A stretch of 64,000 nt of DNA from an uncultured Alphaproteobacteria bacterium (GTDB taxonomy: Bacteria > Pseudomonadota > Alphaproteobacteria > Rs-D84). The DNA is taken from NCBI GenBank assembly GCA_944392815.1, contig CALXXY010000001.1, positions 32,001 through 96,000 of the forward strand, in the 5' to 3' direction. The first letter of the stretch is position 1, and every line of letters begins with the position of its first letter. Below the pieces are notes generated by a model. That model was given only the letters and a program-made list of their open reading frames with translations, searched no databases and was not told the origin of the DNA. This document shows, one piece after another, positions 43,425 through 43,690 of this stretch. The translations under genes and the position numbers were made by a program.

Positions 43425-43453
43425 TTGCATTATTCACGTTAACGCGATATTAT
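43425..43453 (+). promoter_or_regulatory. Sigma70-like promoter of cassette B
   Basis: TTGCAT-N17-TATTAT immediately before the structured leader. Confidence 0.65.
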
Positions 43454-43458
43454 ACGAA

Positions 43459-43662
43459 TGTCAGCGGGTGTTCCGCTGATGGGGTGTCGAAACCTCTGCC
43501 TTAGCGTCGAACGGGAAAAAACTGGCGCGCACGCGCTGTTTTTATGCGACGTAAAATAAAAACTCCTGACCACGGGTCAGGAGGGTCACGAATATCAAAT
43601 AAGTGACACAATTCTAAGGATTGTTTCGAACCTCCTGACCACCAAATTTTTTGGTGGTTTTT
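43459..43662 (+). ncRNA. c4-antisense-like structured leader RNA with upstream target sites and terminator
   Basis: Closing stem GGTCAGGAGG (43575-84) / CCTCCTGACC (43631-40) with two internal hairpins; CTAAGG (43614-19) and GTTTCGA (43623-29) complement upstream CCTTAG (43499-504) and TCGAAAC (43487-93); terminator at 43638-43662. Confidence 0.7.
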
Positions 43663-43690
43663 CTTATTCAGAAAAAACAGGAGTAAAACA

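Follow-up and report, generated by a model that had tools for sequence, protein, structure and literature searches.

A probable C4-type leader RNA with copy-specific pairing boxes upstream of a cysteine-rich gene cassette in an uncultured alphaproteobacterium

Leader and cassette at the locus

We analyzed a stretch of 64,000 nucleotides (nt) from an uncultured Alphaproteobacteria bacterium of the Rs-D84 lineage (GenBank assembly GCA_944392815.1, contig CALXXY010000001.1, positions 32,001 to 96,000 of the forward strand). This whole stretch is referred to below as the window, and positions are those of the window unless a contig is named. The subject is the leader at 43425 to 43662, upstream of a two-gene cysteine-rich cassette. 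It contains a cloverleaf with two exposed segments that complement two boxes further upstream in the same leader, and the closing stem of the cloverleaf overlaps an intrinsic terminator. This leader, designated copy A, is very probably a C4-type structured leader. A preliminary description of the locus had proposed a phage P1 c4-like antisense RNA switch, and all of the elements that it listed (promoter, cloverleaf, two hairpins, and complementary boxes) were found in place. The features are as follows; MFE denotes minimum free energy, and R1 and R2 are covariance models described below.

43425..43453, + strand: sigma-70-type promoter TTGCAT-17 nt-TATTAT, -35 box at 43425-30 and -10 box at 43448-53, read from the sequence
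43461..43479, + strand: a1b1-element 5' hairpin, TCAGCGG-loop-CCGCTGA, part of the MFE fold, with a stem that covaries among 29 aligned copies
43481..43496, + strand: GGGG/CCTC mini-hairpin with box a1, TCGAAAC (43487-93), in its loop; a1 complements a'
43499..43504, + strand: box b1, CCTTAG, complementary to the hairpin-2 loop and starting 12 nt after the start of a1, like other copies
43505..43551, + strand: stem CGTCG/CGACG around an internal terminator-like hairpin (43523-38), then TTTTTAT, from the terminator scan and the MFE fold
43563..43574, + strand: P0, an upstream copy of the closing-stem 3' arm, CTCCTGACC (43563-71), plus a loop; it can sequester the closing-stem 5' arm
43575..43640, + strand: cloverleaf of closing stem, hairpin 1, hairpin 2, and junction (RF02221, 30.9 bits; R1, 63.8 bits; R2, 71 bits; covariation)
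43575-84 and 43631-40, + strand: closing stem, GGTCAGGAGG paired with CCTCCTGACC
43585-89 and 43603-07, + strand: hairpin 1, GTCAC/GTGAC
43608-12 and 43620-24, + strand: hairpin 2, ACAAT/ATTGT
43614-19, + strand: b', CTAAGG, in the hairpin-2 loop, complement of b1 CCTTAG (43499-504)
43623-29, + strand: a', GTTTCGA, in the 3' junction, complement of a1 TCGAAAC (43487-93)
43637..43662, + strand: intrinsic terminator (hairpin 43637-59 plus T-run), the 5' arm of which shares GACC with the closing-stem 3' arm
43679..44134, + strand: Shine-Dalgarno sequence AGGAG and cargo gene 1, 147 amino acids (aa), signal-peptide-like N terminus, 10 Cys, no Pfam family
44146..44424, + strand: cargo gene 2, 92 aa, signal-peptide-like N terminus, 6 Cys, sub-threshold cEGF and CC Pfam matches only

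The 241-nt leader has an MFE of -88.5 kcal/mol, compared with -59.1 ± 4.7 kcal/mol for 200 dinucleotide shuffles (z = -6.3), and none of the shuffles was as good. In copy A, an ACCA tail stands directly 3' of the closing stem, and b1 is ~75 nt from the cloverleaf, whereas this distance is ~40 nt in most paralogues. Promoter boxes equivalent to those of copy A (TTGNNN-16/17-TAnnnT) occur in the inspected paralogues at the same distance 5' of the 5' hairpin; the copy-A promoter itself is absent from the output of the consensus promoter scan, as it does not satisfy the first-hexamer rule of that scan. The 5' element of copy A was recovered at C1:75453-75512 with 50 bits by a covariance model of the 5' (a1b1) element built from 29 aligned copies (R3). 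The flanks of a1 are conserved (GGGG, 82%; CC(C), 73%), and a1 itself is 49% conserved. This mini-hairpin corresponds in design to CGGG-loop-CCCG of Rfam c4-a1b1 in P1. The internal terminator-like hairpin between b1 and P0 is also present in three relatives of the copy-A sub-type (L032, L049, and L051). This hairpin, the position of a1 in a mini-hairpin loop, and the existence of paralogues were absent from the preliminary description.

Two further candidate features of the leader were rejected. Short ATG or GTG frames across a1 and b1, which might have encoded a leader peptide, are present in copies A, B, and H but are inconsistent among copies and have no Shine-Dalgarno sequence. An internal promoter within hairpins 1 and 2 of copy B (TTGAAT ... 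TATAGT) is not common to copy A.

Covariation, paralogues, and distribution

Related leaders were first found in the genome to which the window belongs (927,230 bases in 18 contigs, 96.8% complete) by using BLAST and the Rfam family RF02221. Model R1, built from paralogues B and C only, then found 10 copies with scores of 49 to 119 bits. We based no models on MAFFT alignments of the first six and of the first three copies, as structural elements were out of register in them. Model R2 was built from 44 structurally aligned copies and found 15 modules in the genome at an E value of ≤0.1; together with copy E, which was detected via RF02221, the genome contains 16 full modules.

The fold of the cloverleaf is well supported by covariation. 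In the alignment of the 44 homologues, 96.7% of the cells at paired positions were paired, compared with 79.1% in column shuffles, and none of 500 shuffles reached the observed value. Changes on both sides were found for 21 of the 23 cloverleaf pairs, and sliding the pairing partners by 1 to 3 columns left only 33 to 58% paired. The 44 rows were fitted to the model, which favors pairing. The cloverleaf of copy A is a real three-way-junction RNA fold.

The preliminary description had named covariation between loops and targets across homologues as a check of its proposal. We carried out this comparison with 46 copies from ~30 genomes, using the model alignment to extract the hairpin-2 loop and 3' junction of each copy and searching the 208 nt upstream for complementary runs. 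A combination was counted when both boxes were at least 6 nt long (G-U pairs counted as half) and a1 lay 8 to 18 nt 5' of b1. Both boxes were found in 42 of the 46 cognate combinations, whereas only 81 of 2,070 non-cognate combinations, in which the probes of one copy were applied to the upstream region of another, gave such a pair. Loops and targets thus covary clearly, contrary to the refuting condition that the preliminary description had set. The four cognate failures were copy J and three members of one tandem array, and three copies found later also had cognate boxes. The 46 copies have 42 different b' loops and 38 different a' segments. No other part of the module varies as much as the boxes: among the 33 best-scoring copies, mean pairwise identity was 42.5% for b', 58.1% for a', 48.9% for a1, and 32% for the b1 zone, compared with 88.6% for the closing arms, 84.9% for the hairpin-1 loop, and 78% for the hairpin-2 stem.

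The hairpin-1 loop (43590-43602 in copy A; 13 to 15 nt, consensus GAAUAUAUUGAAUAA) is ~85% conserved, although stems and boxes vary freely.

We searched the genome for joint a1..b1 sites with strict Watson-Crick pairing. Leaving aside the trivial antisense match to the RNA gene itself, 11 of the 13 copies tested had such a site in their own leader and nowhere else. The two exceptions were copy B, which had one extra site, and copy J, which had no own-leader site because its b pair is broken. On inspection, the extra B-type site at C1:21975 was a chance match inside other sequence.

Copies J (C2:2737-3137, L022) and H (C4:1-470, L020) are near-duplicates, and J is without b1/b' complementarity. 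The cargo open reading frame (ORF) of J diverges from that of H after 18 codons and is 64 codons long. From its sequence, J looks like a decaying copy.

The family is widespread in the order. R1 gave matches in 23 of the 24 further genomes tested from the genus and in 5 of 16 from other genera in the order, and the largest count was 45 matches at an E value of ≤0.01 in one 1-Mb relative. R2 matched 144 of 151 genomes sampled from the order (own genome included), with complete coverage at the genus level (107 of 107) and nearly complete coverage at the family level (119 of 121). The total was at least ~1,690 matches at an E value of ≤0.001 in the 151 genomes, with up to 26 candidates scored in each. 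When each family of the class was represented by one genome, R2 matches appeared in 17 of 149 other families, mostly in genomes of 0.9 to 2.5 Mb; four of these loci, with five copies, were inspected, and cognate boxes were kept in all five. The sequencing runs that contain the stretch were mostly chicken-gut metagenomes.

An exact-pattern scan of 2.9 million viral contigs (IMG/VR) gave three stretches, two of which were true members (74 and 65.6 bits) with complementary a1/a' and b1/b' boxes. One of them (L069, 7738-9730, - strand) is a full module with cognate boxes in a phage fragment. It is followed by three genes, the last of which encodes an ADP-ribosylglycohydrolase homologue, and these cargo genes are convergent with the gene for the large terminase subunit. 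The second viral member is located at one end of a provirus that encodes a tape-measure protein, ahead of an ABC-transporter gene.

A tandem array in relative G022 (L052, 280-1587) consists of six cloverleaf copies at intervals of ~200 nt, and the intervals are free of ORFs. Since the copies at 1291 and 1501 have the same box specificity, the RNA at 1291 has matching boxes both upstream and downstream, in the P1-like order a1b1-C4-a2b2.

The genes downstream of the leaders are diverse. The cysteine-rich two-gene cassette follows copies A, B, and C; gene 1 alone follows H, at a contig end, and the cassette is broken in J. Cargo gene 1 has 196 homologues, none of which is named or has a Pfam domain. 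Other cargo in the same genome includes an uncharacterized 190-aa protein together with a membrane-anchored Mrr_cat nuclease, an OMP beta-barrel protein, a PAP2 phosphatase, a 1,219-aa ResIII helicase, an HTH_3 protein, and several small family-less proteins. In relatives, the cargo is mostly exported and without a Pfam family, and it also includes HTH proteins, a Stealth transferase, and Cys-rich repeat proteins. This diversity indicates that the element is a general leader for accessory genes and not for surface proteins only. The earlier idea of a domesticated RNA switching surface-protein genes is too narrow: the element is neither single nor restricted to surface proteins, and it occurs order-wide with many kinds of cargo. 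In a contig assembled from an RNA library (run X17), the leader end at 43620-43662 is joined to a different sequence with its own AGGAG and start codon. The same leader therefore precedes other cargo in another strain, which suggests that cargo is exchanged at the terminator boundary.

The flanking genes of copy A encode RNase E/G, an LPG-synthase-like membrane protein, RNase PH, RRF, UppS, CdsA, RseP, and BamA. As the preliminary description had noted, there are no phage genes nearby; none was found within ~6 kb, and the neighbors are housekeeping genes. The phage- or prophage-immunity context of the C4 clan (CL00128), with an antirepressor, icd, or kil, is thus absent at copy A, and the two IMG/VR phage contigs carry full modules.

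Judged from its sequence and layout, the feature is an uncatalogued alphaproteobacterial branch of the C4 superfamily that has expanded into the standard accessory-gene leader of an order of reduced-genome gut bacteria.

Terminator switch and possible modes of action

The leader contains three mutually exclusive helices: P0 with the closing-stem 5' arm, the 5' arm with the 3' arm, and the end of the 3' arm with the terminator. These correspond to the 1:2, 2:3, and 3:4 helices of attenuator logic, and anti-anti-terminator, anti-terminator, and terminator helices thus exclude one another directly before a co-oriented gene. Both the capacity of CTCCTGACC to replace the 3' arm on the closing-stem 5' arm and the overlap of the terminator with the 3' arm had been proposed before and are borne out by our analysis. 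P0 of at least 6 bp was found in 42 of the 46 copies. A terminator hairpin using 3 to 4 nt of the closing arm was found in 40 of 46 copies by reading of folds, and a stricter script counted 33 of 46. When transcripts were truncated 8 nt past the closing stem, ahead of the terminator 3' arm, 39 of 44 MFE folds included this stem, compared with only 10 of 44 for full-length transcripts. Forcing the closing stem in full-length leaders cost a mean of 2.8 kcal/mol, and the predicted energies of the two states differed by no more than ~3 kcal/mol. In 38 of 46 copies, the terminator was followed within 140 nt by a Shine-Dalgarno sequence and start codon, as judged by a crude ORF caller that mis-called some frames, and the gap from the T-run to the Shine-Dalgarno sequence was 10 to 30 nt in most copies. 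We conclude that the leader probably gates the terminator.

The closing-stem 3' arm (43631-43636) contains an anti-Shine-Dalgarno-like CCUCC, which pairs with the cargo AGGAG (43679-43684) in the MFE fold of copy A. In this predicted fold, a free closing-stem 3' arm might additionally mask cargo translation.

By analogy with characterized relatives, we are inclined on balance to view copy A as a self-contained transcription unit, in which a self-targeting leader of the C4 superfamily would exert negative autoregulation of read-through into the cargo. The constitutive-looking promoter would drive a ~230-nt leader that presents a1, in its hairpin loop, and then b1 first. Pairing of the a and b boxes would decide between the cloverleaf, acting as an anti-terminator, and P0 plus the terminator, and would thus set read-through into the cargo. 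Terminated or processed leader RNA would accumulate and capture a1 and b1 of nascent transcripts of its own locus in trans, so that termination is favored. Without accumulated RNA, the nascent leader would dock on itself in cis, and read-through would follow. Private box codes would prevent cross-talk among the at least 16 loops of one cell. Repressive feedback in trans, which is again drawn from analogy, is the more tentative part of this scheme, and we would put it at somewhat below an even chance.

Several results weigh against autoregulation by a C4-type leader. The preliminary description had suggested a search against the Rfam C4 models, and this search was negative. At gathering thresholds, the whole window gave four tRNAs only, and an E-value scan of 43350-43750 against all 4,227 Rfam families gave no C4-clan match at an E value of ≤10. 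Model RF01695 (C4) had no match in the whole genome at an E value of ≤10, and RF03163 (c4-a1b1) matched no leader, its best match in the genome being elsewhere, with 16.1 bits. As a positive control, the P1 record gave 68.8 bits with C4 and 51 bits with c4-a1b1. In the reverse direction, R1 matched the P1 c4 locus in the right register but with only 9.2 bits (E value, 0.21), and R2 gave no match there at an E value of ≤0.01. Homology to C4 therefore rests on layout alone. The best Rfam match to the leader was sRNA-Xcc1 (RF02221) at 43575-43648, where 30.9 bits fell short of the gathering score of 53, in the same three-way junction with ACC on the 3' side; the other copies scored 23.4 to 39.1 bits with this family, all below the gathering score.

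The target sites raise a further difficulty. In the 120 nt 3' of the terminator, where a2 and b2 sites were sought, both boxes recurred in 6 of 46 cognate and 281 of 2,070 non-cognate combinations, a background frequency. Occlusion of the ribosome-binding site, the mechanism documented for C4, thus cannot apply here. Pairing of the a and b boxes in cis is compatible on paper with both the P0 and the closing-stem states, and structure gives no sign for its effect on the terminator. In copy D, P0 and the boxes are kept without an overlapping terminator or co-oriented gene, so that attenuation cannot be the sole role of P0. Only 28 of the 46 copies have a strict RCC tail, which weakens the case for tRNA-like processing by RNase P; the closing stems begin with GG in nearly all rows (here GGT or GGC). 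RNase P RNA and Rho are present in the genome, and no match to Hfq (PF17209) was found in this 96.8%-complete assembly.

Contigs from RNA libraries likewise do not strengthen the case. The X17 contig covers 43403-43662, and a 155-nt contig from run X19 covers 43488-43642; the downstream ORFs are uncovered in these two runs. We rejected these contigs as evidence of ends, processing, termination, or expression, because contigs show neither ends nor levels. Assembly branching explains where the X19 contig stops on either side, since the paralogues become alike at these points.

Finally, some a1b1 elements stand alone. In the same genome, R3 recovered 10 leaders of the main sub-family and three orphan elements without a cloverleaf. 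Two orphans are in the window, at 39365-39423 (- strand; 43 bits) and 59670-59728 (- strand; 55 bits), with identical boxes TGAGAAC and CACAAG, and no cloverleaf cognate to these boxes was found anywhere in the assembly. The third orphan (C1:24859-24918, + strand; L002) is outside the window and consists of a promoter, 5' hairpin, and boxes. Its identity to part of leader A is 86%; b1 (CCTTAG) is that of copy A, a1 is different, and the element is directed antisense into the 3' end of the Mrr-nuclease operon that is led by copy I. It likewise has no cognate cloverleaf in the assembly. The orphan elements give no support to a trans regulon.

The orphan at 59670-59728 continues to a terminator near 59535-59570 and could be an IsrK-like short RNA or a remnant.

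The main rival to feedback in trans is a fold that acts purely in cis. Here, a1-a' and b1-b' would be intramolecular, pseudoknot-type contacts that balance terminator and anti-terminator, no RNA would act in trans, and the inputs could be transcription speed, temperature, or processing capacity. The boxes are on the same transcript, so that local concentration favors pairing in cis, and the absence of any other two-box target in the genome, the orphan elements, and the finely balanced alternative folds are all in line with such a mechanism. However, the combination of a conserved scaffold and hypervariable boxes (42 different b' loops in 46 copies) looks like selection for copy-specific recognition. 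This pattern is expected if copy-specific recognition is selected, which is relevant only if the RNAs meet in trans. In addition, the available parts of the literature describe the closest characterized relatives, P1 C4 and P4 CI, as acting in trans (PMC5320573 and PMC4825925). We therefore consider a purely cis-acting fold unlikely, although it is the alternative that fares best.

A sign opposite to that of autoregulatory repression would be obtained if docking in cis favored termination and RNA in trans titrated a1 and b1, giving delayed or all-or-none read-through (positive feedback with a bistable ON state) for surface genes. The same structural facts, namely the boxes, P0, and the energy balance, fit this version equally. 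By our own reading, moreover, the GGGG 5' of a1 can pair with CCUCC of the closing-stem 3' arm, so that the a1-a' helix could extend and disfavor the closing stem. This extension is only 3 to 4 bp long, including a G-U pair, and the parts of the literature drawn on offer no precedent among C4, CI, and IsrK systems. Positive feedback thus appears improbable.

Equally improbable in our view are stand-alone trans-acting small RNA (sRNA) genes of the sRNA-Xcc1 or Acinetobacter Group 1 type, each with its own terminator and other mRNA targets and with an independent downstream gene. Copy D and the tandem-array members have no co-oriented ORF, sRNA-Xcc1 is the best Rfam match, and tandem arrays of sRNA-Xcc1 homologues are described for Xylella in the available part of one study (PMC12189769). 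On the other hand, no two-box target was found outside the own leader, upstream a1 and b1 covary with the cloverleaf in 42 of 46 copies, and a separate promoter would not fit into the short spacing that most copies have between T-run and Shine-Dalgarno sequence.

A non-coding DNA repeat (repetitive extragenic palindrome, miniature inverted-repeat transposable element, or bacterial interspersed mosaic element) is effectively refuted: the closing-stem arms do form inverted and direct repeats, but the copies are not near-identical, as mobile repeats are, and instead have compensatory changes in 21 of 23 pairs and boxes of their own, and they lie on the sense strand ahead of ORFs, each with its own promoter and terminator.

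If self-addressed, autoregulatory leaders are assumed, a broader proposal can be made, which we regard as speculative and rather doubtful. An order of reduced-genome gut Alphaproteobacteria would use a phage-type lock-and-key RNA as its main gene-specific regulator, with dozens of orthogonal C4-like attenuators per 0.9-Mb genome, each a private feedback loop to one accessory, defense, or surface gene. Cassettes could then be switched or pulsed singly, for instance stochastically or when transferred into a naive cell, and neither protein regulators nor DNA rearrangement would be needed. Under this proposal, the C4 superfamily would have pairing with a1 and b1 as its ancestral core function, and the a2/b2 sites of P1 would be a derived add-on; the L052 array, in which one RNA matches boxes on both sides, would show how this add-on could arise. 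Independently of this broader proposal, the C4 design would have moved from phage immunity to routine chromosomal gene control, and its density here is extreme (at least 16 modules in 0.93 Mb); the variable surface and defense genes of an uncultured animal-gut group would be marked as a jointly organized, RNA-gated gene set. In P1, the upstream a1 and b1 have the status of "putative" targets only. In the present family they are the RNA's only partners, are strongly maintained, and have a directly testable function. As a very large natural set of covarying lock-and-key pairs, the family could also define C4 pairing rules and supply orthogonal parts for synthetic attenuators.

Comparison with known systems

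The available part of Weinberg et al. 2010 (PMC2864571) lists C4 and c4-a1b1 for Proteobacteria and phages, with c4-a1b1 in gamma-Proteobacteria. A literature search for "C4 antisense" together with "Alphaproteobacteria" found no paper, and the available part of one paper on Enterousia (PMC12306168) contains neither "small RNA" nor "regulat".

The P1 record has the order promoters, a1 (48255-61), b1 (48269-76), c4 (48343-419), a2, b2, icd, and ant. According to the record and the Rfam alignments, b' of P1 (CACUAAC) is in the hairpin-2 loop, and a' (CUGUCAA) is between hairpin 2 and the closing-stem 3' arm. Box a1 is in the loop of a small CGG/CCUG hairpin behind a 5' hairpin, 14 nt 5' of b1, and ACC follows the closing stem. 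A terminator-like hairpin comes after b1, where the isrK model matches with 35.1 bits, and a further hairpin overlaps the closing-stem 3' arm. The P1 C4-like layout proposed for the locus in the preliminary description is reproduced by copy A. P1 immI and copy A share the promoter, the 5' hairpin, a1 in a hairpin loop, b1 ~12 to 14 nt further on, and a terminator-like hairpin after b1; P1 C4 and the copy-A cloverleaf share the three-way junction, the positions of b' and a', a closing stem with an initial GG and with ACC on its 3' side, and a hairpin overlapping its 3' arm. However, the leader differs from P1 in that it has no a2 or b2 and no occlusion of the ribosome-binding site, and in its full intrinsic terminator on the 3' side and its conserved P0. 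Hairpin 1 has a conserved 15-nt AU-rich loop instead of UUCG. The leader is also chromosomal, with at least 16 copies per genome, has no icd or ant, and shows no detectable sequence similarity to P1.

Termination by the P4 CI RNA is Rho-dependent and coupled to translation. As in P4 CI (seqA/seqC), an RNA derived from the leader would pair with an upstream site of its own transcript and cause premature transcription termination, as far as the available part of one study describes that system (PMC4825925). In that description, seqB is the only antisense region of P4 CI and has a site on either side (seqA upstream, seqC downstream), whereas here there are two boxes, both with upstream partners. 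The same source describes IsrK as an a1b1-type, Hfq-independent RNA with its own terminator, with part of the transcripts read through and a C4-like RNA downstream. Copy A resembles Gifsy-1 IsrK/STnc1160 in having an a1b1-type element with its own terminator upstream of a C4-like RNA, and no Hfq was found here either. In contrast to copy A, Gifsy-1 IsrK is described there as activating translation of a downstream ORF in trans, at a prophage locus with an antirepressor (PMC4825925).

On the 927,230-base genome, locus L015 of contig C4 (positions 2011-2196 of the locus, + strand) also has a sub-threshold match to Wolbachia sRNA 46 (RF02625), with 35.1 bits against a gathering score of 65.3.

Two sRNA families are also comparable. 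Group 1 of Acinetobacter baumannii is a large group of sRNAs with a C4 motif, apparently processed from longer transcripts at GGW (Weiss et al. 2016, PMC5320573, in the passages available). Like the present family, it has many chromosomal C4-like RNAs per genome with variable a', and the closing stems of the present leaders likewise begin with GGT or GGC. Unlike copy A, Group 1 is detected by the Rfam C4 model and is discussed in those passages as trans-acting sRNAs without established targets; covarying upstream a1 and b1, an overlapping terminator, and a cargo gene are not described in them. Homologues of sRNA-Xcc1 occur, according to the accessible parts of two reports, in arrays, next to C4 and IsrK in Xylella genomic islands, and also in APSE phages (PMC12189769; bioRxiv 10.1101/2020.03.17.996009). 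The present leaders share with sRNA-Xcc1 (RF02221) the topology, the closing stem GGYYGGRGG/CCYCCRRCC followed by ACC, and tandem arrays. Unlike copy A, sRNA-Xcc1 is described as an integron- or island-borne trans-acting sRNA, and no self-target is described for it in the available part of PMC12189769.

In its switch logic, the leader is comparable to the trp leader and the T-box, which likewise have three mutually exclusive helices ending in an intrinsic terminator just before the gene. In contrast to these systems, the deciding input here appears to be RNA-RNA pairing with boxes of the own leader, rather than a ribosome, tRNA, protein, or ligand.

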